Source: Acidobacteriota bacterium (lineage in GTDB: Bacteria; Acidobacteriota; UBA6911; RPQK01; JACQSY01). Taken from it: a stretch of 64,000 nt of DNA. The position numbers were made by a program, and so were the translations under genes. Numbering within the stretch: position 1 is the stretch's first letter; every line of letters begins with the position of its first letter. Shown here piece after piece: positions 17,556 to 50,472 of this stretch. A model generated the notes under the pieces. It saw only the letters and a list, made by a program, of their open reading frames with translations. It was not told where the DNA came from and did not search any database. The DNA lies in contig JACQSY010000043.1 in the NCBI GenBank assembly GCA_016211085.1, positions 22,845 through 86,844 of the forward strand, read 5' to 3'.

Positions 17556-18794
17556 ATGAAAGTTCATGACTCTGGCGGAAACCTCGCTCTTTCGTGCCGC
17601 ATCGACTACGATGCGCGACTGGTGGAAGAGGCCGTCCTGTTGAGGATGGCCAGCCATCCTGAAGAAGCCAGATTCCGCAAGAGCCGCAACCCAATCTATG
17701 AAGTGGTTGATAGCGAACAACGAGAAAAGCGCTTTCGAGAATTCCACAGCGAATGGTTTGTTCGCCTCAGGATGGGAGAGCCTATTGTCGCCGCGCTTGG
17801 GGAGCAACCGACGCTTGGCGAAGACGTCCTCATCTGTTGTGTTGTTCGGGCGCTGTCCTCTTACGAAGAAGGGGCAGATCTGCACCAGCGGCGCAGTAAC
17901 GGAGGCGTGGGAGAACAGGGTCATCCGAACCGTGACAGGTTGAGAACGAATGTTCGGTCTCATTGCGTGGGGCCATCCACCAACGAGGCTCTCTCAGGTT
18001 CGATGAAAACACCCCGCCAGGACGCACATATGTATGCGAGCACGCTTCGGACACAGACTTCCCAAGACACTTCCATTGCAGGGGACAGTTCTAAGACGGA
18101 AAACGCCTCGAACCGGGCCGCCGCGGAAAAGATCATCGTAGTTAAACTCCAGCCTGCCTCCTTTTTAAATTCCGATCGCCTGCGGGCATTCCTCCGGCAC
18201 GAATTTATGCATATTGTCGATATGCTGGATCCCCGGTTTGGCTACCAGCCGGTGTTGCCCAAATCGGAATACGGCCCGGCTTATGACCATCTGGTGAAAG
18301 ATCGATACGGGGTTCTCTGGGACACCTGGATCGACGGACGATTGCAACGCCGAGGCTGGGCAGGCGGCCACGTTTGCGGGCAGCGACGCGCGGAGTTCAT
18401 CGCGACTTTTCCCATGTGCGGGGATGAGGTGGAAGAAAAATTTGCGCAGTTCTTCAACGCCGATTTCCTGACTCACGGGGCTTTGGCGGCATTCGCTTTA
18501 AATCCAGGGGGGGGCTCCAAGGTAGGAGTTGGGCGGGGCCGGGCGCAACCGTGTCCGCTCTGCCGATTCCCTACATCAGATTTCATCGATGGCACACGCC
18601 AGTTAACAAAGGAGGCAAAACAACAGATCGCGGTGGATTTTCCCAACTGGCGACCCGGGCACGGACTTTGCCGTCAATGTTCCGATTTGTACTTGGCCCG
18701 CGGATTATCCCAGAGCGCGGAAGCTGGGCTGCCGGGAACCCAGCGCCGCCAGGCGGATAACCTCGCCGCCTATGAAATCAATAAAAAAGCCTGA
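17556..18794 (+). CDS. hypothetical protein with HExxH motif and C-terminal CxxC…CxxC zinc-ribbon
   Basis: 412 aa from MKVHDSGG (RBS GGAGA 14 nt upstream); contains RHEFMHIVD (HExxH) and CPLCRF…CRQCSDLY; no family recognised. Confidence 0.45.
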   Translation: MKVHDSGGNLALSCRIDYDARLVEEAVLLRMASHPEEARFRKSRNPIYEVVDSEQREKRFREFHSEWFVRLRMGEPIVAALGEQPTLGEDVLICCVVRALSSYEEGADLHQRRSNGGVGEQGHPNRDRLRTNVRSHCVGPSTNEALSGSMKTPRQDAHMYASTLRTQTSQDTSIAGDSSKTENASNRAAAEKIIVVKLQPASFLNSDRLRAFLRHEFMHIVDMLDPRFGYQPVLPKSEYGPAYDHLVKDRYGVLWDTWIDGRLQRRGWAGGHVCGQRRAEFIATFPMCGDEVEEKFAQFFNADFLTHGALAAFALNPGGGSKVGVGRGRAQPCPLCRFPTSDFIDGTRQLTKEAKQQIAVDFPNWRPGHGLCRQCSDLYLARGLSQSAEAGLPGTQRRQADNLAAYEINKKA

Positions 18795-18872
18795 TAACGT
18801 GTTGTTTGTGTCCAGCTGATTTTGTTCCGAAGGCAGCTAACCCTGAAGGTCTATCCCTAGGACGTCAATAGG

Positions 18873-19271
18873 GTGATCTTTTCAACGAAGTGCCAACACG
18901 CCATTCGGGCATTGACCTACCTGGCCCGGTCGGGCAAGTCCTGCGCCCGAGAAATCAGTCGCAATCAGAAGTTGCCCTACCATTTTACTGGAAAGATACT
19001 TCAGGTCCTGCAGAAGACGGGCTTTGTGAGATCGGTAAGAGGTGCCGGTGGAGGGTTTGTTCTTACGCGGCCGGCAAGCAAAATCCGTCTTATCGACGTC
19101 TGGTCAGCTATAGATGGAACTGAGAAATTTGAGGGGTGCCTCTACGGTTTGAACCAATGCTCAGAGCTGAAACCCTGTCCTTTGCATGAGAATTGGACAA
19201 TCATGCGCCGTCACATAGAAAAGAACTTGAGCAACCAGAGCATTGCAGATCTGACTTACCCCAAGACATGA
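18873..19271 (+). CDS. Rrf2-family transcriptional regulator (NsrR/IscR-like, three-Cys Fe-S ligand set)
   Basis: N-terminal Rrf2 wHTH (MIFSTKCQHAIRALTYLA…ISRNQKLPYHFTGKILQVLQKTGFVRSVRGAGGGFVLTRPA) and C-x6-C-x5-C cluster (CLYGLNQCSELKPC); GTG start. Confidence 0.8.
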   Translation: MIFSTKCQHAIRALTYLARSGKSCAREISRNQKLPYHFTGKILQVLQKTGFVRSVRGAGGGFVLTRPASKIRLIDVWSAIDGTEKFEGCLYGLNQCSELKPCPLHENWTIMRRHIEKNLSNQSIADLTYPKT

Positions 19272-19433
19272 AATCTGAACCCGCTGAAAGTTGCGGCGGA
19301 CCTCTCAGAGAAACAAACACCTGCTTTCTGTCGGCGTAATCCCAACTTCACAGACTTTCAAAAACAGTAGCTTCAGGCCGAAACACCCTTTCTCTGGAGT
19401 GACCCCTATGGGCAGGGCTACACCTAATTATAA

Positions 19434-19868
19434 TTAATGGTGCCTGTCATGCCTCCCGTTGAGTGGGACCGCAGCTCTTCGCTCCCTCTCTATCAAAAAG
19501 TCGTCGACGACTTCGACAATCGGCAGTAGGTAAGCGTCAAGAGCGCAGTGCCCCTCACGCCGAAGATCACATCCAGTCCTGGGAAACAACGGGTTGCGGC
19601 AGGTGGAGCAGACTTCATCGCGCACTTTTTGGACGTAGTGTTCCATCCGATCGCTGTGAACCGAACTGACGATGTGTACCAAACCGTCCAGGTGGATGGA
19701 AATTGGGCACCGATCGAGTTTTTTAAGGCCGCAAAGACTATTGGGCTGCAGTTCGGGGCAGATAGGACAGATAAGGCTCTTTAATCTATCCTCCAGCTCC
19801 CGTGACTCCTGGCTCGTAAGCATATTAATCCATTCCTCCTTGCTAGCCGTCTGCGTTCGAAAAGGCAA
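19434..19868 (-). CDS. Cys-rich hypothetical protein (8 Cys, incl. CPICP and CSTC pairs)
   Basis: 144 aa ORF, convergent with Rrf2 gene; no recognised family. Confidence 0.3.
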   Translation of the reverse strand: MPFRTQTASKEEWINMLTSQESRELEDRLKSLICPICPELQPNSLCGLKKLDRCPISIHLDGLVHIVSSVHSDRMEHYVQKVRDEVCSTCRNPLFPRTGCDLRREGHCALDAYLLPIVEVVDDFLIERERRAAVPLNGRHDRHH

Positions 19869-20743
19869 GATTTATGCCATAGGCGCATCGCTCAAATCGC
19901 GAACACTCAAGCATTGGCGCTTACTGCTTGGCCGGCGTCTACAAAGACGAACGCAGACCGAGCGTTCCTGTTAGCGCCATCGGAAAGGATCCGCAAAAAT
20001 CATCTCTGAATGTGCAGTGCGGAAGAAATCAGAGAGGCCCGGCCCCGACTAGGAGCTTGGGGCAAATTGCTGTCGAGACCGGTTAAGAGCGAACTGAGGA
20101 AGGAGGCCCGTCTTCGGCGCGATTACTCCTGGGGCATGTCCGTCGCCGATTTCGAGCCTCCCGAGTTGGAGGTGTGACTCTGTTTTTCTGTCCTTTTACT
20201 CACGCAAGTTTCGGGCCAAAACTAGGATCCTTTTTGACACGGCGAAAAAAGGCTGAAAGCATAGCTGCTTGCGTGACAAAACGAGCTATGGCTACGAAAA
20301 GACACTCCGTCTGAAAACGCTGGCGCGTAAATTCTTGCGAGATTTGCCCCAGAGGAGTTGGCTTTGCGACCCAACTTTGCCGGCGGCGCTTGAGTCGAGC
20401 CATGGCCTTGATCTTCTAAGGGCGAGAACTCGAAAAGGATTCCACTCAAGAATTCCCGGCAAGTTTGACGGGGCAACAGGAGGCTTGGTGCGCTGTTTGC
20501 ACCGTTAAGGTTCTTTGAAGATGCGGGTAGAGTGTACTATTGACACCTGCAGAAGAAATGCCCGCGCCAGGCAAGCTCAGCGCGGTCTGACATCGGAGCC
20601 GCGGCGTGAGCGAGCGGCCACTGAGTGCTGAGGACTGAGCAACGATACTCGCTCAGCACTCAGTCCTGAAAGTGCCTGTCTCTATCAGGCACCGCGGAGG
20701 ACATTACTTGTGCAGGATGCAATACGTAGCCAGTGAGGAGCCA

Positions 20744-22036
20744 ATGAGGCCATCCGTATTTCAATCACTTCTTCCGGAGCGGGGGGACTTTTATTTTTTG
20801 TTCCTGCGCATTTTCACCCTGCTGGGGGGGATAGCATGGTACCTGCTGGTCCCCTATGAGGCCGAACGCCGCAATTTTCTCGCTTGGCTCCTGGGGGCGT
20901 ATGCCTTCTACACCGTATGTCTTTATGCATTGGTGATCCTTCGTCCCGCGGCCATTCGCATTCTCTACCTGGTGACCCTCGCAGTTGATCTCGGTTTTGT
21001 CTACATGCTGATTCTGCATGTTGGCCGGCTGAGGGGGAGTTTTTTCATCGCCTACTATCTCTTGACTGCAGTTCACTCGTTTTATTTTGGTCTGAAAGTC
21101 GGACTCCCTTCGGCACTGGTCATATCTGCCTTATACCTTTCCAGCTATTATCGCTTGAATGGTCCAGTGGTGATTCCGTGGCCTGATCTCATCTTGAGAA
21201 TCTCTTTCTTATTTCTCATCGCGCTCTCGTTGGGTCTTTTGTCCGACCGCGAAAAACGAATGCGGAAAAAACTGCTCGAGCTCAATCAGGAACTGAGCCG
21301 CAAGAATGCCATCCTGGAGCAAACATATCGACACCTTTCAATAGGAAAGTTGATTGGCGAGATTGCAGAAGGTATCAACGGTCCCCTCGGCACCATTTCG
21401 CTACGTTCGGAATTTTTGATGGCCGAAGCGCGCGACCGCAAGATGCCTGCTGAGTTCGCGCGCGGGCTTGAGGTGATGCATCGCTGCAGTCACCAGGTGG
21501 CGCAGGTGGTAAGAAGTCTCCTGGCATTTTCCAAACAGGAGTACGAGCAGCAAGCGCTGAACTTTAACGAGCTGGTGGAGGATGCGCTGTTATTAACGGA
21601 GCGAGGTTTCAAGGGAAAGAATATCACCGTTCAAAAGCAGCTGGAGCCACAGTTGCCCTCCGTTCTGGGAGATTCCTCCGAACTTAAGGGGGTATTGATC
21701 AGCCTCATAAGCAACGCCATCGACGCTTTGCCGAAGGGAGGGACGATCAGGCTGTATACCCGCACCAGTTTTGCTGAGGGCCGATCGGTTATCTGTGAGG
21801 TGCACGATAACGGAACCGGTATTCCGGAAGAGGACCTGGAAATAATTTTTAATCCTTTCTTCACTACCAAGGCCAAAACGGGGGGGATCGGGCTTGGCTT
21901 GTCCACCAGCCTCAGCGTGATGAAAAAGCATAATGGGCTCATTGCGGTGCGCAGCCTTCTTGGGAAGGGTTCGGTGTTCACTATGTCGCTGCCGGCTTTT
22001 CGTCCGGCGCTTCCTGTTCGCAAGGGCGCAGCCTGA
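20744..22036 (+). CDS. membrane-embedded sensor histidine kinase (polytopic N-terminus, HisKA + HATPase_c)
   Basis: Five to six N-terminal TM helices, H-box (…IAEGINGPLGTI…), N/G boxes (HDNGTGIPEE…GGIGLGLS); start uncertain (ORF opens at 20672). Confidence 0.8.
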   Translation: MRPSVFQSLLPERGDFYFLFLRIFTLLGGIAWYLLVPYEAERRNFLAWLLGAYAFYTVCLYALVILRPAAIRILYLVTLAVDLGFVYMLILHVGRLRGSFFIAYYLLTAVHSFYFGLKVGLPSALVISALYLSSYYRLNGPVVIPWPDLILRISFLFLIALSLGLLSDREKRMRKKLLELNQELSRKNAILEQTYRHLSIGKLIGEIAEGINGPLGTISLRSEFLMAEARDRKMPAEFARGLEVMHRCSHQVAQVVRSLLAFSKQEYEQQALNFNELVEDALLLTERGFKGKNITVQKQLEPQLPSVLGDSSELKGVLISLISNAIDALPKGGTIRLYTRTSFAEGRSVICEVHDNGTGIPEEDLEIIFNPFFTTKAKTGGIGLGLSTSLSVMKKHNGLIAVRSLLGKGSVFTMSLPAFRPALPVRKGAA

Positions 22037-22041
22037 AAGTG

Positions 22042-23397
22042 ATGGCAGAAAAAAGCAGAGTTTTGATCCTGGACGAAGCCGACATGGCGGAATCAATCGG
22101 GCTGATGCTGGCGCGTAAGGGATTTGATTGCAACGTTTGTGTGAACCGCAGCGAGCTCGGACGCGTCATTGCATCCACCCGACCAGACATAGTAGTCACC
22201 GGGGTACGGCCGTCGGGTGCGAAGTCCTGGACCATTCTCGAGGTCATCAAGAAGCAAAATCCCGATCTTCCTGTAGTTATTGTCACTGGGTTCGCGACCG
22301 TGGATGCGGCTGTCGAAGCCATGAAAAGGGGGGCTGCTGACTTCATCTGCAAACCCTTCCACGCGGACGAACTGTTTTTGAAAATTCAACGAGCCCTTAC
22401 CCACGTGCAAACTCAAGCGGAAAATTCGCTGCTTCGTCATCAGCTGTATGCCGACGATCACGTATTCCCGGAGCTTCTCGGCCGAAGCAGCGCTATGAAG
22501 CGCGTTTTCGAGATGCTGGAAAGAGTGCACGCCTCGGAGAGCTGTGTTTTTCTTACCGGCGAGAGCGGAACCGGAAAAGAACTGGTCGCACGGGTGATTC
22601 ATCGCATGAGTGCCCGACGCCACGAAAAATTTTTTCCGGTGAATTGCGCGGGAATGGCAGAGAACCTGTTGGAGAGGGAGGTATTCGGACACGAAAAGCA
22701 AGCGTATGCCGGCGCGGCCAGTGCCCGGAGGGGCCTCCTTGAAATGGCGGAACATGGGACCCTTTACCTGAAAGAGGTGGGTGAGACCTCGCTTTCCTTT
22801 CAGGCTAGCCTGCTGAACGTCCTGGAGCACAACGAATTTCATCGCGTAGGAGGGAACAGGGTACTCCACGCCGACGTGCGAGTGATTGCTTCCTCCAGAA
22901 ACAATCTGGACGATCGCATCGCTTCGGGCGCTTTCCGCAAAGACCTGTACTACCGACTGTGCGTGGTACGCATTCATCTGCCTTCCTTACGAGAACGTAA
23001 AGAGGACATTCCTCTGCTGGTGGACCATTTTCTTCACAAGCATGGGCGAAAGATTTCCAAACGGATCACCGGAGTCAGCGCTGAAGCGCTCCAGAAACTG
23101 GAGGCACATTCCTGGCCTGGGAATATCCGGGAACTTGAGAACGTGCTCGAGCGCGCCGTTATCATGGCCGCGGGACAATCAATCACTCCCGCAGATTTGC
23201 TTCTGGAAAGAGCTTCCGAGATCTCAGAACCAGGGCGCCTTACCACGCTGGAGGCCATGGAAAAACAACTGATTGAACGGACTCTGGTCGAGTGTAGGTG
23301 GAATAAGAGCGTAGTGGCCAAAAAGCTTGGCATTGGAAGACGGACGCTTTATGACAAGGCGTCTCGTTTCGGAATTGGCCTCAAACCTGCAGAGTAA
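22042..23397 (+). CDS. sigma-54-dependent response regulator (NtrC family: receiver + AAA+ + Fis-type HTH)
   Basis: Receiver Asp region, Walker A GESGTGKE, GAFTGA-like ESELFGHEKGAYAGA, C-terminal HTH; adjacent to kinase. Confidence 0.85.
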   Translation: MAEKSRVLILDEADMAESIGLMLARKGFDCNVCVNRSELGRVIASTRPDIVVTGVRPSGAKSWTILEVIKKQNPDLPVVIVTGFATVDAAVEAMKRGAADFICKPFHADELFLKIQRALTHVQTQAENSLLRHQLYADDHVFPELLGRSSAMKRVFEMLERVHASESCVFLTGESGTGKELVARVIHRMSARRHEKFFPVNCAGMAENLLEREVFGHEKQAYAGAASARRGLLEMAEHGTLYLKEVGETSLSFQASLLNVLEHNEFHRVGGNRVLHADVRVIASSRNNLDDRIASGAFRKDLYYRLCVVRIHLPSLRERKEDIPLLVDHFLHKHGRKISKRITGVSAEALQKLEAHSWPGNIRELENVLERAVIMAAGQSITPADLLLERASEISEPGRLTTLEAMEKQLIERTLVECRWNKSVVAKKLGIGRRTLYDKASRFGIGLKPAE

Positions 23398-23565
23398 TGG
23401 CTCACGAATCCAATGAACAAATGGGCTGCCGTGTCCGATGCGTTCATTGAGTACGCGTTAGTTTAGACATTCATTAATGCCATGAGGGACGCACCAAAGC
23501 CCGGCTTCGATGGGCCACTGGAGCGCCACTCCGAATCAATGGGCGAGCTAGACCTCGTCTGATTT

Positions 23566-23931
23566 TTGGGTTCACCCATGCTCTACCAAGCTTATGTGCC
23601 AGGCGCTTCAAACAGCACAGCCAAGAAAAAAATTGTATACCTCACACTGGTCACTGAATCGGATGCCGAAATCATGAGCGCTCAAGGTCTTGCTGCTTTG
23701 CGGCGCGAGCGCATGATGCGCCTTTGCCAGGAAGCTCAAGCGCAGGGAGCGCTCCTCGGCTATGAGGATCTGGTTCAGCTTCTCCTGAGCAGTCTCAGCA
23801 CCCTCAAAAGAGATCTGAGATTGCTGCGCAATCAGGGGCAAAGCGTGCCACTCTACCGCAAACGCCAGCGATCCCTGCTGCCACGCCAGATCGGCATTGA
23901 AAAACGTGCCGAGGCTGAAAGCACGCCTTAA
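23566..23931 (+). CDS. hypothetical protein
   Basis: 121 aa ORF between regulator and cytochrome operon; no motif recognised; weak. Confidence 0.25.
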   Translation: MGSPMLYQAYVPGASNSTAKKKIVYLTLVTESDAEIMSAQGLAALRRERMMRLCQEAQAQGALLGYEDLVQLLLSSLSTLKRDLRLLRNQGQSVPLYRKRQRSLLPRQIGIEKRAEAESTP

Positions 23932-24140
23932 GTTGTACTTTCAGAACCCTCGTCTTGGGCTCAAAAGGCCGCACAGACTGTGCAAAAATCACACACTTTG
24001 CCGTCTGTTTGAAAGCGGGTTTTCACCCATAACTGGTTCTAACCTCCCATCTTGGAATGGCTGTTCGAGTTCACACCCGGTCTCCTATTCAGGGCTAATC
24101 CAGAGAGAAACCGCTGCCTGGGCATGCCGCAATGCGCCAG

Positions 24141-24155
24141 GGCACGGGAATTGCT
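24141..24155 (+). promoter_or_regulatory. sigma-54 (-24/-12) promoter candidate upstream of decaheme cytochrome operon
   Basis: GGCACG-GGAA-TTGCT matches TGGCACG-N4-TTGCW with correct GG/GC spacing, ~140 nt upstream of ATG at 24294, next to a sigma-54 activator gene. Confidence 0.6.
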
Positions 24156-24293
24156 CAAGAAGTGAGGGACTTTTTAAAAAAGGAATCGATCAGGAGTGGC
24201 TGCTGGAAGGATCAAGCCAGGCAAACGCGGCCGGTATTGGCAGCCTGGTGATGCAGCGATTAACCACTTCAGTTCACCGTCGAAGGGGGTTTT

Positions 24294-26330
24294 ATGAAAA
24301 TTAAAGGACGCTTTCAAATCTGGGTCGTCGGCTCAGTAATGGTCCTTGGATTCCTCAGTGTCTTTCTTGCCGCCCGCCTGGAAGTGGATCAACAGTATGG
24401 TCCGCTCGATAAGGAATTTTATTTATCTGATACCCAAGTCCAATTCATCAGGCCGGGTTTGGAGTTTCAAATTCTTGAAGTGACCATTGGAGCCGATCGC
24501 AAGCCGGTCGTAAAGATTTCACTCAAGGATCCCAAAGGCTTGCCTCTGGACCGCGATGGCATTTTTACGCCGGGACCGATTTCAACTACGTTCGTTATTG
24601 GCTACATTCCTGCTAACGCCACTCAGTACACGAACTACAATATTCGGAATGTTGCCAGCACGATAACCGGAAAAACCGCCACTCAGGCTACCAGTGATTC
24701 CGGGGGAAAATGGGCCAAGGTGGAAGACGGCGTGTACACGTACACTTTTGGAAATGCGCTGCCGGCAGGCTTCGACGGAAGCCTCACCCACACCATTGCT
24801 GCTTATGCCCGGCGCGACCTGACGGAATTCAATTTGGATCGCTACGTAAAGAACGCCGTATTTCACTGGGTGCCCAACGGGGGGGAAGTGAAGCAATGGC
24901 GCGATGTCGTTCGCACTGCGAATTGTAACGAGTGCCATAACCCGCTTGCTCTGCACGGAGGGGCGCGGCAAGAAGTAGGGTTGTGCATCCTGTGCCATCA
25001 GCCGCAGACCTCCGACCCTGATACAGGTAACACCGTGGATTTCAAGGTCATGATTCACAAGATCCACATGGGTCCCAATCTCCCCAGCGCCAAGGCTGGA
25101 AAACCGTACCAGATTATCGGAAACCAGGGTAGGGTATTTAACTTTTCCGAACACGTGCTCTTTCCGCAAGACATCCGTAATTGTGAAAAATGTCATAAGA
25201 ACGCCACCCAGGGCCTTGCGTACCTGCTGAAACCATCCGCAGCCGCCTGCGGCTCCTGCCATGATGACGTGAACTTTGCTACGGGTGTAGGCCACCCTGG
25301 CGGACCCCAGGCTTCCGACAATCTGTGCGCCACCTGTCATATTCCCGAGGGGGAGCTGGAGTTTGACGCCTCCATTAAAGGTGCGCACAAGATCCCAGCG
25401 AAATCAGCAGAGCTGAAGGGCCTTCAGTTGAAGATTTTAGGGGTCAGCAATACGGCGCCCGGCCAAAGTCCCACAGTTCTCTTTACGGTTACTGAAAAGG
25501 ATGGAACGGCTGTTGCTCCGAGTTCTCTCAACTTCTTACAGCTGGTGCTAAGCGGGCCGACCAAGGACTATGAGAATCTGATCATTGAGCCGGCACGCGA
25601 TGCGGTTCCCACGGCGGATGGCTACACGTACACTTTCAAAGGGAAAATTCCCGAAAACGCCAAGGGGAGCTTCATGGTTGGCGGGGAAGCTTATCGCATG
25701 GTCACGCTGGCTGCTGGAACTACCAAGGAACGACAGGTCCGCGAAACCGCCAATAACCCCGTGCAGTACGTTGCCGTCACGGATGCGAACGCAGTACCGC
25801 GCCGCCAGGTGGTTGCCACCGCCAACTGCAACCGTTGTCACGATGAGATGGTGATGCACGGAACCATCCGGCACGATCCGGAGAAATATTGCGTCGTCTG
25901 TCATATTCCATCAGGTACGGACGCGGCACGCCGGCCTGCAGACCAAATGCCGCCTCAATCTCGTGATTTCCGCTTCATGGTGCACCGCATCCACACGGGT
26001 GCGGATTTGACGCGGGAGTTCTCAATTTACGGCTTTGGCGGAGCCCTGGAGGCGAACGAGATTAACTTCCCGGGCGACCGGCGCGATTGCGAAAAGTGCC
26101 ACGTGAATAACTCCTATCGGCTGCCTCTGGCATCCGGCCTGCAACCGGTGCCGGTGCAGCGGGAATTCTTTACTCCCTATCCTCCCACGACAGCCGCGTG
26201 CCTGGGCTGCCATGACGGCGAAGCCGCGGCCGCTCATGCTTACACCATGATCACGCCGTTTGGTGAAGCGTGCGCTGCGTGCCACGGTACGGGTAGAGAA
26301 TTCGCTGTCGAGAGGGTTCATGCCCGTTAA
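24294..26330 (+). CDS. MtrC/OmcA-like decaheme c-type cytochrome (two pentaheme halves)
   Basis: Ten CxxCH motifs (CNECH, CILCH, CEKCH, CGSCH, CATCH | CNRCH, CVVCH, CEKCH, CLGCH, CAACH) split 5+5 over 678 aa; N-terminal hydrophobic signal/anchor. Confidence 0.65.
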   Translation: MKIKGRFQIWVVGSVMVLGFLSVFLAARLEVDQQYGPLDKEFYLSDTQVQFIRPGLEFQILEVTIGADRKPVVKISLKDPKGLPLDRDGIFTPGPISTTFVIGYIPANATQYTNYNIRNVASTITGKTATQATSDSGGKWAKVEDGVYTYTFGNALPAGFDGSLTHTIAAYARRDLTEFNLDRYVKNAVFHWVPNGGEVKQWRDVVRTANCNECHNPLALHGGARQEVGLCILCHQPQTSDPDTGNTVDFKVMIHKIHMGPNLPSAKAGKPYQIIGNQGRVFNFSEHVLFPQDIRNCEKCHKNATQGLAYLLKPSAAACGSCHDDVNFATGVGHPGGPQASDNLCATCHIPEGELEFDASIKGAHKIPAKSAELKGLQLKILGVSNTAPGQSPTVLFTVTEKDGTAVAPSSLNFLQLVLSGPTKDYENLIIEPARDAVPTADGYTYTFKGKIPENAKGSFMVGGEAYRMVTLAAGTTKERQVRETANNPVQYVAVTDANAVPRRQVVATANCNRCHDEMVMHGTIRHDPEKYCVVCHIPSGTDAARRPADQMPPQSRDFRFMVHRIHTGADLTREFSIYGFGGALEANEINFPGDRRDCEKCHVNNSYRLPLASGLQPVPVQREFFTPYPPTTAACLGCHDGEAAAAHAYTMITPFGEACAACHGTGREFAVERVHAR

Positions 26331-26379: not shown

Positions 26380-27270
26380 ATGATCCCCCCGCTCGTTTTT
26401 CATAATCGCGGTTCTGTAGCGTTTCTTTGGGGACCGGTCACAGTGCTGTTACTACTGATCCTGGCGCTGGGCGCCGGTCCCGCCCGCGCTCAGGCGCCGC
26501 CGGAAAAAGTCGGTAACGAGACTTGCCTCAGCTGTCACGATGTGGAACCGACGCTCTCCAGAACCCCTCATGCTGCCAAAGAATGTGAAAACTGCCACGG
26601 GCCGGGAAGCACTCACGTTGAAAACGGCGGAGATCTGAGCCTGAGCTTTCGGGCCAATCCAGCCCCATGGGCCGTGACGCAGTGTCTTTCCTGCCATCAG
26701 TCCAACACACACCTCACCGCCTTTCGTGCTTCCGCTCATGGAAGAAATTCCGTCGCATGCGTTTCCTGCCACCAGGTTCACCAGGAGCGTGCGGAGTTTG
26801 GACTCCTGAAAAAAGACCAGGCTGCTGTTTGCACGGATTGTCACCCGGCGACTCGGGCAGAGCTGCGCAAACCGTTCCATCACCCGGTTCTGGAAGGGGC
26901 AATGCGTTGCAGCGACTGCCATCAGCCGCACCTGGAAGAACGCAGGCCGCTGCGACGCCTCGTGCATGGATCTGACGATAGTTGCCTCTCGTGTCACTCT
27001 GATAAGAAAGGTCCTTTTATTTTCGAGCACGCTGCGGTAACGGTGAGTGGCTGTGAAACATGCCATCAGCCGCACGGCTCGGTCAATGCGAAGCTGCTCA
27101 GACGAACGCAAGTGCACCAACTTTGCCTGGAATGTCATAGCCGGACCCCGGGAGTGGCCGGCAAACAGCCTCCCGCATTTCACGATATAAGGACCGCGCG
27201 TTTCCGGAACTGCACGACCTGCCACCGTGAAATCCATGGTTCAAATGCCAGCCGGATCTTCTTCAGATAA
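26380..27270 (+). CDS. MtrA/PioA/MtoA-like periplasmic decaheme c-type cytochrome
   Basis: Ten CxxCH in ~300 aa (CLSCH, CENCH, CLSCH, CVSCH, CTDCH, CSDCH, CLSCH, CETCH, CLECH, CTTCH), signal peptide; size/heme density of MtrA. Confidence 0.7.
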   Translation: MIPPLVFHNRGSVAFLWGPVTVLLLLILALGAGPARAQAPPEKVGNETCLSCHDVEPTLSRTPHAAKECENCHGPGSTHVENGGDLSLSFRANPAPWAVTQCLSCHQSNTHLTAFRASAHGRNSVACVSCHQVHQERAEFGLLKKDQAAVCTDCHPATRAELRKPFHHPVLEGAMRCSDCHQPHLEERRPLRRLVHGSDDSCLSCHSDKKGPFIFEHAAVTVSGCETCHQPHGSVNAKLLRRTQVHQLCLECHSRTPGVAGKQPPAFHDIRTARFRNCTTCHREIHGSNASRIFFR

Positions 27271-27281
27271 TCGAGGACCCT

Positions 27282-29216
27282 ATGCGCCACGCCTCACTCT
27301 TGTTTCGAGCCGGACTGATCGCTGCCCTGAGCATCGCGCAGTTGACCGCAACGCTTTTCGGAAAGGACGAGCGCTATCGATTCAATCTGGATTTTGGCTA
27401 CCGCTGGAAAGCCGGCTTCCGTGGAAGTAAGGACCTCTACCGCAGCCAGTTGGACCTTGGCGAAGGCCCCAAACTTCTGGCGGGTGACTTTTTCGTCTCG
27501 GCGCCGAAAGGATCCAACCGCTGGTTCGATCGTGTGGAACTGCGAATGAACAGTTGGGGGGGCGAGCCCTATAATTCGGCGCAGCTGAGAGCCGCCAAGG
27601 CAGAGCTCTATGAGCTGTTCTTTAGCCATAGAAATGTCCAGTATTTCAACGCCATTCCTTTTTTTGCCAATCCCCTGTTTGAGCAGGGAGTGGCGGCTAC
27701 GCAGCACCATTTCGACATCTCGCACCGCTTCATCAGCACGGATCTGCGCCTGAGACCCCAAAAAGCGGTGGTGCCGTTTCTCTCTTACCATCGCGCCGTG
27801 CGACAGGGACCCGTCCGCACCAGCCTGGTTGCGCAAGGTGATGAGTTCGTCATCCACTCTCAGATTGAAACGCATTCGGATGATTTCAGCGGCGGCGTGG
27901 AATTGAAGTTTGATGCTCTCTCCCTGCTTTTGGAACAGGGGATGCGCCGCTATCGTGACAAGAGCGCTTTTGATTCGCTTGGATTTCAAGGCGGCAATTC
28001 GCCGCGACCGGTGCTGGGCCGCGACATCACGCTGGAACGCTACCTGGCTCGGAATGACTGGGAAACGGATGTCCCCTTCACCAATGTCGTGCTCGCCGCG
28101 CAACCGCATGCAGACCTCAATGTCCGGGGGAAATTCTCTTATAGCATGTCCGATCTGGAGGGCTTGTTCCGGGATGAGGCAATCGGAACCTTCTTTGGAC
28201 GCCCCGAATCTGCGTTCTTCAAGCAGGAAATTCAGAATGTCTCAGGACGTTCCAAGCAGCCGTCCTTGTTCGCGGACGTGTCCGCAGACTGGCGGGTCAC
28301 AGATCGAATTCAAATACTCGAGCATTTTTATACCCGGCGGCTTCACATTTCAGGTTCTGCGGTTTTGGATCGTGTGCTCTTGCAAACGGAGCCGTTGCTG
28401 GGTCCGCCTGCAAGTCAGATCCAACAACGGAGTCTACTCGACGCGTTCCTTGCCTTCGATCAGGATGTTCAGGAGTTACAAGGCATTGTTTATTTCGCTC
28501 CTCGCCTCTCATTTCGAGTAGGCCATCGCTTCGAACAAAGAAACGTAGAGCTTGCGGAGGAATTTTCCTACAACCGCAACGTGGCGATCGCAGGCGTGAC
28601 CTATGAACATTCTGCGACCAACAGGATTTCCGCCGAATACGAATACGGCCACACCACTCAGGCGGTTTTTCGTCTCGACCCGGTGGATTTTCATCGTGCA
28701 CGGGTGCGCGGACGTCTTTCTCCCATAAATTGGCTGGAGCTGAACGGAAGCATTACCTTGTTTGATAACCGTGATCCACAACGCGAAATCGATTGGACCT
28801 CCCGAGATCGAAACTACACGCTCCAAGTCGGCTTCACGCCGCACCAGAGGGTGACGTTTACGGCGGAATATGAACGAAGCAATTTAAGAAGCAACATTAT
28901 TATCATCGTTCCGCAAACGTTCACGCAGGACCGTTCTGTATACCGGGAGAGAGGTGATTATGGTTCGGCCCTGCTTTCAGTGCAGGTGGTACGCGGCGCA
29001 CAGATCGATCTGGGTTATTCTGTCTGGGGGACAGTGGGCAGTTTCCCCATGAGCTATCATCAGCCCATGGCTCGGCTGGAAATCCCGGTCCACAAGAGGC
29101 TGGTGGTGTACGGCCAGTGGAATCACTACGACTACAACGAAAAGCAACTGCTTCTGCCGCAAGACTACCGTGTCCATCTCGCTCTATTCGGGCTTCGAAT
29201 CTTGTTCGAAAACTGA
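27282..29216 (+). CDS. MtrB/PioB-like outer-membrane beta-barrel (porin partner of decaheme cytochrome)
   Basis: Signal peptide, 644 aa with alternating amphipathic beta-strand pattern, aromatic-rich C-terminus; gene order C-A-B as in mtrCAB. Confidence 0.5.
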   Translation: MRHASLLFRAGLIAALSIAQLTATLFGKDERYRFNLDFGYRWKAGFRGSKDLYRSQLDLGEGPKLLAGDFFVSAPKGSNRWFDRVELRMNSWGGEPYNSAQLRAAKAELYELFFSHRNVQYFNAIPFFANPLFEQGVAATQHHFDISHRFISTDLRLRPQKAVVPFLSYHRAVRQGPVRTSLVAQGDEFVIHSQIETHSDDFSGGVELKFDALSLLLEQGMRRYRDKSAFDSLGFQGGNSPRPVLGRDITLERYLARNDWETDVPFTNVVLAAQPHADLNVRGKFSYSMSDLEGLFRDEAIGTFFGRPESAFFKQEIQNVSGRSKQPSLFADVSADWRVTDRIQILEHFYTRRLHISGSAVLDRVLLQTEPLLGPPASQIQQRSLLDAFLAFDQDVQELQGIVYFAPRLSFRVGHRFEQRNVELAEEFSYNRNVAIAGVTYEHSATNRISAEYEYGHTTQAVFRLDPVDFHRARVRGRLSPINWLELNGSITLFDNRDPQREIDWTSRDRNYTLQVGFTPHQRVTFTAEYERSNLRSNIIIIVPQTFTQDRSVYRERGDYGSALLSVQVVRGAQIDLGYSVWGTVGSFPMSYHQPMARLEIPVHKRLVVYGQWNHYDYNEKQLLLPQDYRVHLALFGLRILFEN

Positions 29217-29446
29217 GGATCTTCTCTTTCGGCGGTTCGTTTATCAATCCTTACACACCCACGATTGTTTAGTATCTCGTCGTTGAAGAAAAAATAATCC
29301 ACGAGTGAATGGTTAGTAGCGAAAGGGTTTTTTTGGGGGAGATTGGCTCATTTATTGGGTGAAATACCATGGGCGCATTGGCCTCTTTCACCTTTAGTTA
29401 ACTTAAAGTTTTTTATGCACAGCAAGTTAGGAGATTGGCCATCGTA

Positions 29447-29462
29447 TGGCGATTCCCTTGCA
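29447..29462 (+). promoter_or_regulatory. possible sigma-54-type promoter (TGGC-N8-TTGCA) before cytochrome c gene
   Basis: tGGCgattcccTTGCAt with canonical GG/GC spacing; lies only ~22 nt before the ATG, so TSS geometry is tight. Confidence 0.3.
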
Positions 29463-29483
29463 TCAACCAACATGGAGGAAATT

Positions 29484-29828
29484 ATGAAGAAAGAATTCCT
29501 GCTCTCCTTAATCGCACTTCTCATTTTCAGCTATTCAATCTTGCTGGCAGCGGATGATGGAGCCGCCGTTTACAAAGGCACCTGTTTGAAATGCCACGGC
29601 GAACTCGGAAAAGGGGATGGCCCGGCCTCCAAGATGTTTAAGCAGGGCCTGGGCGATCTTTCAAGCAAGGCCGGAATGGCAAAGTATTCGGATGAAGATC
29701 TTCAAAAGCTCATCTCCGAAGGCGGCCCCGCCATTGGGAAGTCCAAGGTCATGGCCCCTCAAAAAGGGAAGCTAACCGATGCGCAGATCAGAGCGCTGGT
29801 CGCTTATGTGAAAGGGCTCCAAAAATAG
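29484..29828 (+). CDS. monoheme class-I cytochrome c (periplasmic)
   Basis: Signal peptide then CLKCHG heme motif, distal Met candidate, 114 aa; RBS GGAGGA upstream. Confidence 0.7.
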   Translation: MKKEFLLSLIALLIFSYSILLAADDGAAVYKGTCLKCHGELGKGDGPASKMFKQGLGDLSSKAGMAKYSDEDLQKLISEGGPAIGKSKVMAPQKGKLTDAQIRALVAYVKGLQK

Positions 29829-29950
29829 TCGGATCTCGCGTCGGAAACGGAGAGGACCCGCTTTATGGGAGACATTAGAAATTCGCAAAATACCTCCTCG
29901 CTTTTAAGCAGACGGCTTCTCCGTTCCGTCTTTCGTATTGGGAGCATCAA

Positions 29951-30439
29951 ATGAAATGGTTCCTGAGTGGGCTGGTGATCGCCTTTGTTGTGGGAATTGC
30001 CGCACTGCCGCCCGACCTCCTGCAAAAAAAGGTACAGCAGCCGATCGCTTTTAATCATCTTGTGCATAAGGATTTGGATTGCGCCTCGTGTCACGAGTTT
30101 GTCAAAGAACAGGCCTTCGCCGGATTGCCTTCACTGGATGTTTGCCTGGGTTGTCACGAATCCGCTGTGACGGAGAACCCGGAAGAAGAGAAGATTCGCC
30201 AGTTGGCAGCCGAGGGGAAACCGGTGGTCTGGCAAAGGCTGTTTCGCCAGCCAAGCCACGTGTTTTACTCGCACCGGCGGCACGTCACCATCGCCAAACT
30301 CGACTGTCAAAATTGCCACGGCAAGATGGGGGAGAGTCAGTCGCCTCCCCAATCCGTGCACAACCTCACCATGGAAGAGTGTATTTCCTGCCATGAAGCA
30401 AAAGGGGTTCGTGCTGGTTGCGTCGATTGCCATAGGTAG
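29951..30439 (+). CDS. membrane-anchored pentaheme cytochrome c (ActA/QrcA-like)
   Basis: N-terminal TM helix then five CxxCH (CASCH, CLGCH, CQNCH, CISCH, CVDCH) in 162 aa. Confidence 0.7.
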   Translation: MKWFLSGLVIAFVVGIAALPPDLLQKKVQQPIAFNHLVHKDLDCASCHEFVKEQAFAGLPSLDVCLGCHESAVTENPEEEKIRQLAAEGKPVVWQRLFRQPSHVFYSHRRHVTIAKLDCQNCHGKMGESQSPPQSVHNLTMEECISCHEAKGVRAGCVDCHR

Positions 30440-30558
30440 CAATCTGTTCGAGTAGCTTGCTTGACGCGGGTTCGTGGGGATGGGGAAACGTGGATCGAGC
30501 GATGCGAAGAGCCAGGATTTCTCAGCGAGGATTGAGTAAAACACGCAGGGGGTAAGTA

Positions 30559-32898
30559 ATGAAGTTTAGCCGTAGAGGGTTCGTCAAATTTTCCGCAGGC
30601 TCGGCGGCGGGGTTAGGCCTTGCGGGTGTTTCGCTGAAGACTTTAAGCGATCTGACCGCCGCCACGACAGAAGAGAACTATCCTTCCAAAGGTCCGGAGT
30701 CTTTCCTGAATTCGATTTGCCAGCTTTGCCCGGGCGGTTGTGGTGTCACCGTACGCAAAGTCGGCGATCGTGTGGTTCGCGTCCAGGGAAACAGAAACAG
30801 TCCCATCAACCGGGGCGGTCTGTGCCCGATTGGAGTCGCTTCGCTGCAATATCTCTATCACCCTGCCCGCCTGCGGTCGCCTCTCAAGAGAGAAGGCAGT
30901 TCATGGACCAAGATAAGTTGGGACAGCGCGCTCGGCGAAATCGGGTCCAAACTGAGCTCGACTGTCGGCAGAGGGGAAGGCAGCCACGTAGTGATGCTTT
31001 CGCAGGAACTGCAAGGAGTGTTGCGACAGGTAGCCTCCGATTTTTTGGGCAAGCTGGGATCGAACAATTTGATTGAGACCAGCGGGCCGGGTGATGGAAC
31101 GGGAGTAGCTGTTCGGTTAATGCAAGGTGTACAGAGCCGTCCTGCCTACGACCTCACGAACAGCAATCACATTCTTTGTATTGGGTGTGAGTTGCTGGAA
31201 GGCTGGTCGTCTCCGGTGTGGGTGATGAAGGGCTACTCGCAATTCCGAGGCAAGCGCCCCAGGGGAAGGCTGACCTACGCGGGTTCTCGACAATCCGTGA
31301 CTGCTACCAAGGCGGACACTGCGGTTCAAATCCGACCGGGAACAGAAGGGCTCTTGGCCCTGGGCATCGCTTACGTCTTGATCTCAGAGCGCTTGTACGA
31401 TTTCGAATTCGTCCAATCCCATTGTCAGGGTTTCGAAGATTGGCGGGACGAGAATGGGAGGTGGCACCTCGGGTTTCGCAACATGGTGCTGGAGCGCTAC
31501 CCGTTGAACCTGGTCTCGGAAGTAACCGAGGTTCCCACGGAAAGAATTCTCAAGATTGCCCGTGAGTTCGGGGGAACGCGTCCCGCTCTGGCTCTGGCGG
31601 GTCCAATCGATTCAGTGACCGCCAACAATATTCTGGCAGCGCTCTCGGTTCACGCGCTCAATGCACTCGTAGGAAGCATCGACCGCCGGGGCGGGGTTTT
31701 GCTCCAGTACCCCGATCCGCTGGATACTTCTGAACCTGCTCAAAGCACTCCCTCTTTCCTCGGCAATTTTGCGCAACTTCTCCGGCTGGGCAAGGACCCT
31801 CTGGAAGCGGTAGAGCAGGCATTTGAGTCGGGAAAGCCTTATCTTCCCTCTGCCCTGATTACGCTGGACGCTGATCCCGTCTCTGACTCACATGATGCCA
31901 AAGCGCTTTCAGAAAAATTTCAGCAGGTTCCATTGATTGTCAGTGTTTCCTCTTTTCTAACCGCCACTGCTCAGCTGGCACACTACGTATTGCCCTCAGC
32001 CAGTTTCCTGGAATCTTGGGTGGAGCAGGAAAGCCCGTCGGGAATCCCCTTCCTTTATCACGGACTGGCACAGCCCGCGACCAGCGCGTTTGCAGAGAGT
32101 CGCGCGACCGGTGATATTCTTCTGGGGCTGACGCGATCTTTAGGCGTTCCGGTAAGTGATGAAGATTACGGCGCTCTGCTCAAGAAGAAAATTGCAGGGT
32201 TGTATGAGCGTAAGAGTGGCGCTGTGGCCGGGACGGTTTTCGACCAGCTGTGGCACCAATTGATGGAACAGTCCGGCTGGTGGGCGCCCACTTATGAATC
32301 GCCTGATCAGCTCGTCGAGCAGGTAGCGGCAAAAGGTGGTTGGTGGGACTCCTTTTATCGTTATGAAGATTGGTCCCGAACCCTGAGGAATCCTACAGGA
32401 AAATTCCATTTTAGCGTTTCTGGAATTGAGAGTCTGGTGGGAGGGGAGGCAGCAGGACAACTGGGCAGCTTGCCGCATTTCCAGCCGCCCGCGGAAGGGC
32501 CCGCCTCTGAAAAGTATCATTTTCTGGTCCGCTTCTTTGACCCCCTGGTGGCGGTCTCTCATCAGCCTCCTCTTCCGTTTGTAAGGGAAATTGCAGGAGG
32601 TCTCGTTCAGAATAACGCCGGCATCTGGGTGGAGATCAATGAAGCGGATGCCGAGGAGCTGGGGATCCATAGTGGCGAACTGGTGTGGGTGGAATCCATA
32701 CGAAATCGACTGCAGGTGTTTGCACGGGTCAGCACGGGCGTACTTCCCGGGGTGGTGAATATACCGAGAGGAGTCAGCGGCTGGAGCGGCGACCCCTGGA
32801 GCGTCGGTTCTCCTGTAGCCAGTGCCACACTGGCTGAGCACGGAGCGGATTTCATGCCGAAATGGGGGGAGACTCGAGTGCGGCTCCTCCGTTCGTAG
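30559..32898 (+). CDS. Tat-exported molybdopterin-oxidoreductase-fold subunit (ActB1/QrcB/PsrA-like) with N-terminal [4Fe-4S] motif
   Basis: Tat motif SRRGFVKFSAGSAAGLGLAGV; C-x2-C-x3-C-x(n)-C (CQLCPGGC…C) typical of MopB N-terminus; 779 aa. Confidence 0.75.
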   Translation: MKFSRRGFVKFSAGSAAGLGLAGVSLKTLSDLTAATTEENYPSKGPESFLNSICQLCPGGCGVTVRKVGDRVVRVQGNRNSPINRGGLCPIGVASLQYLYHPARLRSPLKREGSSWTKISWDSALGEIGSKLSSTVGRGEGSHVVMLSQELQGVLRQVASDFLGKLGSNNLIETSGPGDGTGVAVRLMQGVQSRPAYDLTNSNHILCIGCELLEGWSSPVWVMKGYSQFRGKRPRGRLTYAGSRQSVTATKADTAVQIRPGTEGLLALGIAYVLISERLYDFEFVQSHCQGFEDWRDENGRWHLGFRNMVLERYPLNLVSEVTEVPTERILKIAREFGGTRPALALAGPIDSVTANNILAALSVHALNALVGSIDRRGGVLLQYPDPLDTSEPAQSTPSFLGNFAQLLRLGKDPLEAVEQAFESGKPYLPSALITLDADPVSDSHDAKALSEKFQQVPLIVSVSSFLTATAQLAHYVLPSASFLESWVEQESPSGIPFLYHGLAQPATSAFAESRATGDILLGLTRSLGVPVSDEDYGALLKKKIAGLYERKSGAVAGTVFDQLWHQLMEQSGWWAPTYESPDQLVEQVAAKGGWWDSFYRYEDWSRTLRNPTGKFHFSVSGIESLVGGEAAGQLGSLPHFQPPAEGPASEKYHFLVRFFDPLVAVSHQPPLPFVREIAGGLVQNNAGIWVEINEADAEELGIHSGELVWVESIRNRLQVFARVSTGVLPGVVNIPRGVSGWSGDPWSVGSPVASATLAEHGADFMPKWGETRVRLLRS

Positions 32899-32913
32899 CA
32901 GAAGGGCAATTTT

Positions 32914-33597
32914 ATGTCACGTTGGGGAATGATCATTGATCTCGACAAATGCACAGCCTGTCAGGCCTGTGTGGTGGCGTGTAAGGTAGAGAATAACATT
33001 CCATCTCCTCCTGAGGGTGAAGCGCTTAAGAATCGCACCATCTCGTGGATGAAGCTGATTCCACTGCGGAGCGAAGGTTCTGAATCAGAGCGCACGACCT
33101 ACGCACCGGTCGCGTGCCAGCATTGCGACAATCCGCCGTGCATCAAGGTTTGTCCGGTGGATGCGACCAATATTTCCGACGAAGGAATCGTACGCCAGGT
33201 GTATTCGCGCTGCATCGGATGCCGTTACTGCACCAACGCATGCCCTTACACCGTGCGCTACTTCAATTGGTCTGCGCCGCAGTGGCCTGAAGAGAGCAAG
33301 TCTTACTTGAATCCGGATGTCTCTCTGCGGCCTAAAGGCGTGGTTGAAAAATGTACCTTCTGCAATCATCGTTTGCAGAAAGCAAAAGAAATCGCTCGCC
33401 TCGAAGAACGAGAGCTTCACAGCAGTGATTATGTGCCAGCTTGTGTGGAAATCTGCCCGGCCGACGCCTTGGTATTCGGCGACCTTGAAGACTCTGCCTC
33501 GGAAGTTTCCCAACTGGCTAGAAGCCCCCGCGCCTTCCGGCTGCAGGAAGATCTCGGGACAGAGCCCAAAGTAATTTATCTCAGCCAGGGAGAATAG
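32914..33597 (+). CDS. four-cluster 4Fe-4S ferredoxin-type subunit (PsrB/ActB2/QrcC-like)
   Basis: Cys clusters CTACQACVVAC, CQHCDNPPCIKVCP, CIGCRYCTNACP, CTFC…CVEICP. Confidence 0.8.
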   Translation: MSRWGMIIDLDKCTACQACVVACKVENNIPSPPEGEALKNRTISWMKLIPLRSEGSESERTTYAPVACQHCDNPPCIKVCPVDATNISDEGIVRQVYSRCIGCRYCTNACPYTVRYFNWSAPQWPEESKSYLNPDVSLRPKGVVEKCTFCNHRLQKAKEIARLEERELHSSDYVPACVEICPADALVFGDLEDSASEVSQLARSPRAFRLQEDLGTEPKVIYLSQGE

Positions 33598-33600
33598 AAG

Positions 33601-34971: not shown

Positions 34972-34991
34972 GAGCCAAGAGGCATTGATCG

Positions 34992-42549: not shown

Positions 42550-42564
42550 GGTACGAATGTTGCA
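42550..42564 (+). promoter_or_regulatory. sigma-54 (-24/-12) promoter candidate upstream of octaheme cytochrome operon
   Basis: GGTACG-AATG-TTGCA: one mismatch to GGCACG-N4-TTGCA, correct spacing, ~105 nt upstream of ATG 42669, divergent from sigma-54 activator/kinase pair. Confidence 0.5.
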
Positions 42565-42668
42565 AAGCCCTCTCCAGGGTAAAGCCAAGAGCAGAGGGAT
42601 CTGTATTTGCGCCTTCAGGGGCTGATCGACCCGATAGCCTCTCGACTAAACAATCTCGAGGCAACTTG

Positions 42669-43430: not shown

Positions 43431-43448
43431 AGCGGAAAGATTCCAGTT

Positions 43449-49816: not shown

Positions 49817-49817
49817 G

Positions 49818-50129: not shown

Positions 50130-50207
50130 GCCTGCTTTCCCGGTCGCTCTTTTTCCTCCTCTGGCATTGATTTTGCATCATCTAAAATTACTTTTAAGGT
50201 TACCAAA

Positions 50208-50468: not shown

Positions 50469-50472
50469 GCCA

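Follow-up and report, generated by a model that had tools for sequence, protein, structure and literature searches.

Sequence evidence for sigma-54 control of an OmcA/MtrC-family cytochrome operon beside a conserved pseudokinase and a degenerate NtrC-family regulator in an Acidobacteriota bacterium

What controls an operon for OmcA/MtrC-family cytochromes when the kinase homologue and the activator homologue encoded upstream of it both lack residues on which such pairs depend? This question is raised by a 64,000-nucleotide (nt) stretch of DNA from an Acidobacteriota bacterium (GenBank assembly GCA_016211085.1, contig JACQSY010000043.1, positions 22,845 to 86,844), hereafter the window, in which positions are counted from the first letter. 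The regulation of extracellular-electron-transfer conduits is almost unstudied beyond Shewanella and Geobacter. A first-pass annotation of the window had proposed that a membrane kinase and an NtrC-family activator dedicated to the conduit switch it on through a sigma-54 promoter. Our results support sigma-54 control of the operon, and indicate that the kinase homologue is a conserved pseudokinase and that the regulator lacks the residues for phosphotransfer and for ATP-driven sigma-54 activation, which leads us to consider signalling by direct contact. The locus comprises the following features.

20744-22036, plus strand: histidine-kinase homologue (pseudokinase); Pfam HATPase_c 76.6 bits; AlphaFold pLDDT 87.8
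22039-23397, plus strand: NtrC-family enhancer-binding-protein (EBP) homologue; Pfam Sigma54_activat (PF00158) 197, Response_reg 56, HTH_8 (PF02954) 46 and AAA lid PF25601 97 bits
23566-23931, plus strand: DUF1670 protein of 121 amino acids (aa) with a DeoR-like winged helix-turn-helix (HTH); Pfam DUF1670 (PF07900) 51 bits
23932-24293: intergenic region of 362 nt between the DUF1670 gene and mtrC
23969-23984: candidate enhancer, palindrome CCGCACAGACTGTGCA, ~165 nt upstream of the -24 GG
24140-24155, plus strand: sigma-54 type -24/-12 element GGGCACGGGAATTGCT; predicted transcript start near 24166
24294-26330, plus strand: OmcA/MtrC-family decahaem cytochrome, first gene of the operon; TIGR03507 494 bits against a cut-off of 209; Pfam MtrC-MtrF_II-IV 179 bits; 10 CXXCH motifs
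~26380-27270, plus strand: MtrA/DmsE-family periplasmic decahaem cytochrome; TIGR03508 225 bits against a cut-off of 192
27282-29216, plus strand: 644-aa protein in the MtrB (porin) position of the operon; no family match

The mtrC promoter and its upstream palindrome

The element GGGCACGGGAATTGCT has its GG at 24141-24142 and its GC at 24153-24154, giving GG-N10-GC spacing, and lies 138 nt 5' of the mtrC ATG at 24294, exactly where the first-pass annotation had read GGCACG GGAA TTGCT (24141-24155) in front of the decahaem gene. It differs from TGGCAC-N5-TTGCW by one mismatch, a G for the first T. The bare consensus TGGCACN5TTGCW, with one mismatch allowed, was not significant alone (6 matches against 2.85 expected). 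With a position matrix trained on 37 distinct sigma-54-like sites, all from related loci and none from the window, GGGCACGGGAATTGCT scored 18.0 bits and ranked second of ~128,000 positions on both strands; the three best matches in the window were all intergenic and correctly oriented, and 18 bits was reached in one of 20 shuffled windows. The score is as high as those of the elements in relatives with intact regulators. Moreover, sigma-54 motifs were found at four orthologous intergenic positions across ~14 related loci, and an alignment of ten promoter regions (A4) contained only two conserved blocks, the -24/-12 element and an upstream palindrome. These cis elements and their conservation therefore support sigma-54 control of the mtrC operon, which we consider real and, at the level of sequence, well supported. 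The promoter does not lie directly downstream of the activator gene, as had been stated, since the DUF1670 open reading frame (ORF; 23566-23931) intervenes.

The start predicted near 24166 gives a leader of ~128 nt. No sigma-70-like -35/-10 pair was found in 23300-24400 (0 against 0.6 expected), and sigma-70 scans of both intergenic regions gave no match. A riboswitch or leader element at mtrC was rejected, because an Rfam search of 18500-24600 gave no match and positions 24166-24300 (135 nt, the ~128-nt leader plus the first mtrC codons) folded no better than shuffles (z = 0.55). An ORF at 23897-24304, which overlaps the enhancer and the promoter, was without support and was treated as spurious.

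A scan of 23932-24140 for inverted repeats of an upstream activating sequence, which the first-pass annotation had suggested, located the conserved palindrome. Its core GCACAGACTGTGC at 23971-23983 is the sole match to GCACA-N(0-4)-TGTGC in the 64 kb (0.40 expected). In eight relatives the equivalent promoter is preceded, at a distance of 119-153 nt, by CGCACA-N-TGTGCG (in a fuller form, CCGCACA-N-TGTGCGG), which is essentially unique within its ~20-kb locus, and a half-palindrome, CCGCACATGCGCAA, abuts the relatives' kinase-gene promoter. The copy in the window has a 3-nt spacer versus 1 nt in the relatives, and one of its half-sites is weaker (TGTGCAA). The recognition helix of the regulator, GIGRRTLYDKA, is invariant across the loci, so the palindrome variants had no helix changes to track. 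Taken together, positions 23969-23984 form a conserved candidate upstream activating sequence.

Judged by its TIGR03507 score above the cut-off and its ten CXXCH motifs, the target gene at 24294-26330 is a genuine OmcA/MtrC. For both this MtrC and the kinase homologue, NCBI holds MAG entries with 100% identity. The start of the following MtrA/DmsE-family gene was chosen among several candidates as the ATG preceding the signal peptide. The 644-aa protein encoded next had no match in Pfam or NCBIfam, and its position in the operon suggests a porin role; an order of mtrC, mtrA and a gene for 645, 687 or 696 aa recurs in three loci of other genomes (L100, L103 and L104).

The membrane kinase homologue and the neighbouring regulator

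In the AlphaFold model of the kinase homologue, helices span residues 13-35, 40-66, 68-93, 100-115, 117-137 and 146-231 and are joined by loops of at most 8 residues; hydropathy concurs with six transmembrane helices, the sixth of which runs straight into the DHp helix. No PAS, HAMP or extracytoplasmic domain was found by domain search, in the model or by hydropathy, which bears out the earlier description of the sensor as wholly membrane-embedded and free of periplasmic or PAS domains. This six-helix membrane domain is rare (146 representatives at E <= 1e-3 among 1.84 billion proteins) and always N-terminal, and a Foldseek search with the kinase model returned matches to the DHp-CA part only and nothing for the membrane domain. 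It is plausible that the cue is sensed within the membrane. The quinone redox state or a lipid had been named as possible cues, and we found no specific support for either. Quinone sensing of the RegB type is not supported: no motif resembling GGxxNPF, which we take to be the RegB-type quinone motif, was seen on reading the sequence, although no formal search was made. A perfect 13-nt inverted repeat, ACTGAGTGCTGAG ... CTCAGCACTCAGT, occurs at 20620-20632 and 20652-20664, ~80 nt 5' of the ATG of this gene.

HisKA scored 22.9 bits in the kinase homologue, under its cut-off of 26.9, and in the H-box IAEGINGPL a Glu occupies the position of the phospho-acceptor His in alignments with ZraS and CckA. 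The His column was then compared across 69 family members, of which 59 are without His (E 44, A 7, Q 7 and G 1, with H in 10). The N, G1, F and G2 boxes for ATP binding are invariant (N324, D355, G357, G359, F372, G381, G383 and G385). The protein has ~70 full-length relatives (40-62% identity). It departs at two of 88 family-invariant columns, both times conservatively, which indicates a conserved pseudokinase rather than a broken gene. On the NifL model it scored 81.6 bits, far under the cut-off of 242. Its gene is apparently translationally coupled to the adjacent regulator gene.

The regulator consists of REC, Sigma54_activat, AAA lid and Fis-type HTH_8 domains; its best PDB match is NtrC1 (E = 7e-93), and FleQ is also among its PDB matches. 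In the receiver motif DIVVTGVRP, a Gly stands at the position of the phospho-acceptor Asp (NtrC1 and NtrC4 alignments). At this position orthologues carry G, D or S, and the acidic pocket is degenerate in most of them (DT, SK, DK, DS, DN or HA); in more distant homologues the receiver is canonical. Among 120 homologues, only the regulator in the window has QAYAGA for GAFTGA, and only this one has the Walker B sequence GTLYLKEVGE for GTLYLDEIGE (D to K, K245). Sensor I has changed from TN to SR. Walker A (GESGTGKE) is present, with FRKDLYYRL and GNIRELEN unaltered. At the columns that do not vary among 35 orthologues, the regulator carries 18 replacements, as against 0-6 in the other orthologues, and 17 of the 18 fall in residues 169-287, the ATPase core (P = 1.7e-5 for clustering), leaving one for the receiver, lid and HTH; the recognition helix is identical in all loci. 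An identical regulator protein was found in an independent Logan assembly (P0121).

A second pair in the window served as a control for these alignments:

38746-40128, minus strand: canonical REC-AAA+-HTH sigma-54 activator
40118-41677, minus strand: HAMP-HisKA kinase, unrelated to the six-helix homologue; the only other histidine kinase identified in the window

This pair has His (GIAHEINNPL), Asp (DLVLCDLRM), GAFTGA and the DE of Walker B all present. Both phospho residues are thus carried by the control pair, indicating that the aligned columns were correctly identified. In PspF and NtrC, changes of the T in GAFTGA and of the D in Walker B abolish sigma-54 engagement and Mg-ATP hydrolysis. 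Judged by these alignments, the regulator in the window lacks the residues for phosphotransfer and for ATP-driven activation of sigma-54. GAFTGA mutants are generally unable to activate (review PMC7175178). The earlier view of a membrane kinase next to an activator therefore holds for the domain folds and fails for the phospho-acceptor His and Asp, the Walker B Asp, and the F and T of GAFTGA, and the route it implied, from kinase through phosphorylated activator to sigma-54, has lost the residues it requires.

Related loci, the DUF1670 gene and the neighbourhood

The related loci come from a Deltaproteobacteria metagenome-assembled genome (MAG), RIFCSPLOWO2_12_FULL_60_19, and from several metagenomes, and the productive search was a metagenome scan with an alignment of the membrane domain. 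A scan of genome contigs with the full kinase alignment picked up the generic motif [IM]FxPFFTTK and returned almost only unrelated kinases and no syntenic locus. The gene order in the relatives is a small CarboxypepD_reg protein, the kinase homologue, the regulator, an NHL-repeat protein, a tetrahaem cytochrome, the DUF1670 protein, a ~550-aa barrel-like protein with a signal peptide, a second NHL protein, an 11-haem cytochrome and further cytochromes. Three of these genes persist in the window, those for the kinase homologue, for the regulator and for DUF1670. In the relatives, the four sigma-54 sites precede the genes for CarboxypepD_reg, for the kinase homologue (immediately upstream), for the tetrahaem cytochrome and for the second NHL protein; the promoter in the window is the counterpart of the third. 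No good counterpart of the kinase-gene promoter was found in the window, where TGGTGCGCTGTTTGCA at 20486 is outside the top 20 matrix matches. Homology was rejected both between the 644-aa protein and the barrel-like protein that follows DUF1670 in the relatives and between the MtrC in the window and the relatives' 11-haem cytochrome, so the cytochrome cargo differs between the window and the relatives. The regulatory module as a whole is, on gene order, well supported as being tied to porin/multihaem-cytochrome clusters of uncultivated bacteria, and this synteny agrees with the first-pass proposal that the regulator pair is dedicated to the conduit.

In three relatives (L003 7230-8621; L094 3440-4801; L095 5937-7367; all on the minus strand), a paralogue with the six-helix membrane domain carries the canonical H-box LSHEVRTPL and is accompanied by a further kinase. 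One locus can therefore encode this sensor both as a true kinase and as a pseudokinase. Neither the paralogue nor the further kinase was found in 16000-37000 of the window.

The DUF1670 gene occurs in every related locus that reaches that far, directly 5' of the barrel-like gene. The protein in the window is 47% identical to the N-terminal part of the L003 protein, and the orthologue in L001 matches HTH_DeoR with 23.6 bits (cut-off 21). On this conservation, the DUF1670 gene, which the first-pass annotation had passed over, belongs to the regulatory module as its third conserved gene; DUF1670 was not mentioned in the literature searched. In several relatives (L001 14828-16887; L003 15060-16997; L094; L095), a 119-aa DUF1670 gene overlaps the ~550-aa barrel-like gene, whose product has its own signal peptide, by 4 nt or is in frame with it. 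The apparent DUF1670/barrel fusions are probably read-through ORF calls. In the window, a terminator-like hairpin with a T-run lies at 23540-23561, between the regulator stop codon and the DUF1670 start, so the DUF1670 gene may be transcribed separately.

The comparison also took in the sequence upstream of six further MtrC homologues, all from other genomes. The kinase/regulator/DUF1670 module was present in none of these six loci, and a sigma-54-like motif occurs 87-117 nt before the ATG in two of them (L099 and L100) and is absent from the other four. In L099 (positions 1-960), a different EBP gene, with canonical GAFTGA and DE, lies directly upstream of the closest MtrC homologue (62% identity), which is also preceded by direct repeats TTCAGGCAAAATG and by TGGCCCCGCATTTGCA, 87 nt before the mtrC ATG. 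In L100, TGGCGTCAAAATTGCT lies 117 nt before mtrC.

Several neighbouring features of the window were recorded in addition. The best sigma-54 matrix match is TGGCATAAATCTTGCC (18.5 bits; 19864-19879, minus strand), 11 nt 5' of a Cys-rich 144-aa ORF (19434-19868, minus strand) that is divergent from the kinase homologue and matched no Pfam or NCBIfam family. Just 5' of the locus, at 18873-19271 (plus strand), lies a gene for an Rrf2-family (Fe-S type) transcription regulator (Pfam Rrf2 101 bits). The genes 3' of mtrCAB at 29343-36185 (plus strand) encode a mono-haem cytochrome c, a c7-like pentahaem protein, a molybdopterin oxidoreductase, a 4Fe-4S protein, an NrfD membrane subunit and a tetrahaem cytochrome, a set that resembles a quinol-linked (ACIII/Psr-like) module and may supply the conduit. 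The canonical pair at 38746-41677 adjoins NrfD/FeS/multihaem clusters at 36762-38060 and 42486-45388, and a sigma-54-like motif (41718-41703, minus strand) starts 41 nt (counted from the start of the 16-mer) 5' of its kinase start codon at 41677. Tandem genes for the ferrous-iron transporter FeoB lie at 47864-52377, with the sigma-54-like TGGCATTGATTTTGCA between them at 50162-50177; motifs of this sigma-54-like kind also occur between genes at 4676, 2481 and 61617.

Proposed mechanism, alternatives and known systems

The reading that we tentatively favour, while giving it somewhat less than an even chance, combines sigma-54 control with phosphorylation-independent contact signalling and takes the local EBP as an occupant of the enhancer that does not itself fire the promoter. 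The operon of mtrC, mtrA and the porin-like gene would be transcribed from the sigma-54 promoter at 24140-24155, served by the enhancer at 23969-23984. With Glu in place of the acceptor His and Gly in place of the acceptor Asp, no ordinary His-Asp phosphotransfer is expected between the two proteins, and the invariant nucleotide-binding domain together with the operon coupling makes direct, nucleotide-modulated binding the most economical mechanism. The membrane pseudokinase may thus respond to an intramembrane cue and control the EBP by contact, as NifL does NifA. Lesions specific to the ATPase core, with the DNA-binding part kept, suggest that the EBP would still sit on the enhancer and be unable to remodel the sigma-54 polymerase or drive open-complex formation. 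In that case it would modulate the promoter from the enhancer, serving as a brake or joining mixed rings, and firing would require an intact EBP encoded elsewhere. A broader formulation, that the trio of six-helix pseudokinase, pseudo-receiver EBP and DUF1670 protein is a widely conserved, dedicated and phosphorylation-independent controller of porin-cytochrome conduits and that the local EBP is ATPase-dead, sigma-54-blind and either dominant-negative or an obligate hetero-oligomer partner, seems doubtful to us.

Several observations weigh against the favoured reading. The 3-nt spacer and the weaker half-site of the palindrome mean that binding itself may be impaired, and the palindrome could serve the DUF1670 protein instead of the EBP. 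No RpoN-box protein is encoded within the window, so rpoN is not there. The canonical EBP at 38746-40128 has a different recognition helix, and we know of no second EBP with GIGRRTLYDKA. Some relatives pair the His-less kinase homologue with a canonical receiver and a His-containing paralogue, so phosphorylation may still feed in there. GAYTGA occurs naturally in one homologue (P0170), and with the F-to-Y change natural in the family, not every change need be disabling.

The last point bears on the proposal that the local regulator is still an activator, which, in contact with the pseudokinase, binds the palindrome and fires the sigma-54 promoter despite QAYAGA and KE. The regulator gene adjoins the enhancer and promoter and is apparently coupled to that of the kinase homologue, no alternative activator can be seen, and Walker A, FRKDLYYRL and GNIRELEN are intact alongside the natural Y variant of the loop. 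However, the T-to-A change in GAFTGA and the D-to-K change in Walker B occur in none of the other 119 homologues and are of the kinds described above as abolishing sigma-54 engagement and Mg-ATP hydrolysis, and the 17 clustered replacements, sensor I among them, indicate lifted constraint on the ATPase core, so that we consider continued activation unlikely. The same lesions could instead mean that the regulatory genes merely came along when the module joined mtrCAB and are decaying without regulating anything any more, with the operon silent or driven otherwise; the altered spacing of the palindrome, the weak TGGTGCGCTGTTTGCA in place of the relatives' autoregulatory kinase-gene promoter and the absence of the relatives' partner kinases nearby would fit such a history. 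Yet all three ORFs are intact and the kinase homologue keeps 86 of the 88 family-invariant residues, while in the regulator 17 changes in the core contrast with a single one across receiver, lid and HTH, which is domain-specific rather than uniform decay. Moreover, the -24/-12 element has stayed near consensus although the relatives are only 55-60% identical at the protein level. Decay of the module therefore appears distinctly improbable.

Factors of the VpsR, HupR and TyrR type dispense with ATP hydrolysis, and the regulator may have turned into a sigma-70-type factor like these or like Rhodobacter/Caulobacter NtrC, leaving the sigma-54 motif vestigial. Loss of GAFTGA residues is the hallmark of such proteins (for VpsR, PMC6158489). 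Against this stand the lack of any -35/-10 pair in 23300-24400 and the score of the sigma-54 element, which matches those of relatives with intact regulators; in addition, an enhancer ~165 nt upstream is at looping distance rather than at a position for class I/II sigma-70 activation. We regard such a switch as improbable to a slightly greater degree than decay of the module. The canonical phosphorelay, in which the membrane kinase would phosphorylate the NtrC-type activator at the sigma-54 promoter, has in its favour a domain architecture and gene order like those of AtoS/AtoC or ZraS/ZraR. It is contradicted by the sequence, in which Glu and Gly stand at the places of the acceptor His and Asp, whereas the canonical pair at 38746-41677 has both residues, and it is the least probable of the explanations, with very little to commend it.

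The locus offers a concrete and testable cis design, a candidate palindromic enhancer with a sigma-54 promoter, for uncultivated soil and sediment bacteria. Behind automatic annotations such as "sensor histidine kinase" and "sigma-54-dependent response regulator" there can be conserved pseudo-enzymes, and phosphorelay wiring or a "quinone-sensing kinase" predicted from domain names alone would be wrong here. MtrCAB homologues have been reported earlier in Acidobacteria MAGs, and in Geobacter sulfurreducens sigma-54 and NtrC-type regulators govern multihaem cytochrome genes (PMC2725144). G. sulfurreducens belongs to another phylum and uses other regulators, and no pseudokinase/pseudo-receiver pair is described there. 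Three elements are new: a conserved module of pseudokinase, pseudo-receiver and DUF1670 protein with a candidate palindromic enhancer, a six-helix sensor domain that is rare, and, in this genome, a regulator that has most likely lost its motor.

In comparison with known systems, the locus shares with the NtrB-NtrC type (AtoS/AtoC, ZraS/ZraR and Aquifex NtrC1) the order of kinase and then activator, the REC-AAA+-Fis HTH architecture and a candidate palindromic enhancer more than 100 nt upstream of the -24/-12 element, and ZraS and CckA are the best structural and sequence matches to the DHp-CA fold of the kinase homologue. In contrast to that type, the acceptor His and Asp are missing, KE replaces DE, QAYAGA replaces GAFTGA, and the sensor is the rare six-helix domain. 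VpsR, TyrR, HupR and Rhodobacter/Caulobacter NtrC likewise keep the AAA+ scaffold and have lost sigma-54 contact residues, and FleQ/FlrA likewise have a receiver-like domain without a phosphorylatable Asp. The members of this group act at sigma-70 promoters or keep their ATPase, whereas a near-consensus sigma-54 promoter and its candidate enhancer are retained here. If the contact mechanism is true, the regulator would be a natural EBP that keeps DNA binding and has lost its motor.

As for the sensor, the pseudokinases DivL of Caulobacter and PsmA of Streptomyces also have the DHp-CA architecture with the acceptor His replaced, and signal by binding a receiver; DivL is among the structural matches to the kinase homologue. 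DivL, however, has Tyr at this position and binds a phosphorylated single-domain regulator, whereas the family described here has Glu, Ala or Gln and its partner has a receiver without the usual phosphorylation site. The best functional analogy for signalling by the pair may be NifL-NifA, in which a kinase-fold protein with a GHKL nucleotide-binding domain works without phosphotransfer and is encoded beside the gene of a sigma-54 activator. NifL is a soluble protein that contains PAS domains, and NifA carries a GAF domain in place of a receiver, whereas here the sensor is an integral membrane protein and its partner keeps the receiver fold. If signalling does proceed by contact, the pair would therefore represent a membrane-anchored counterpart to NifL-NifA.

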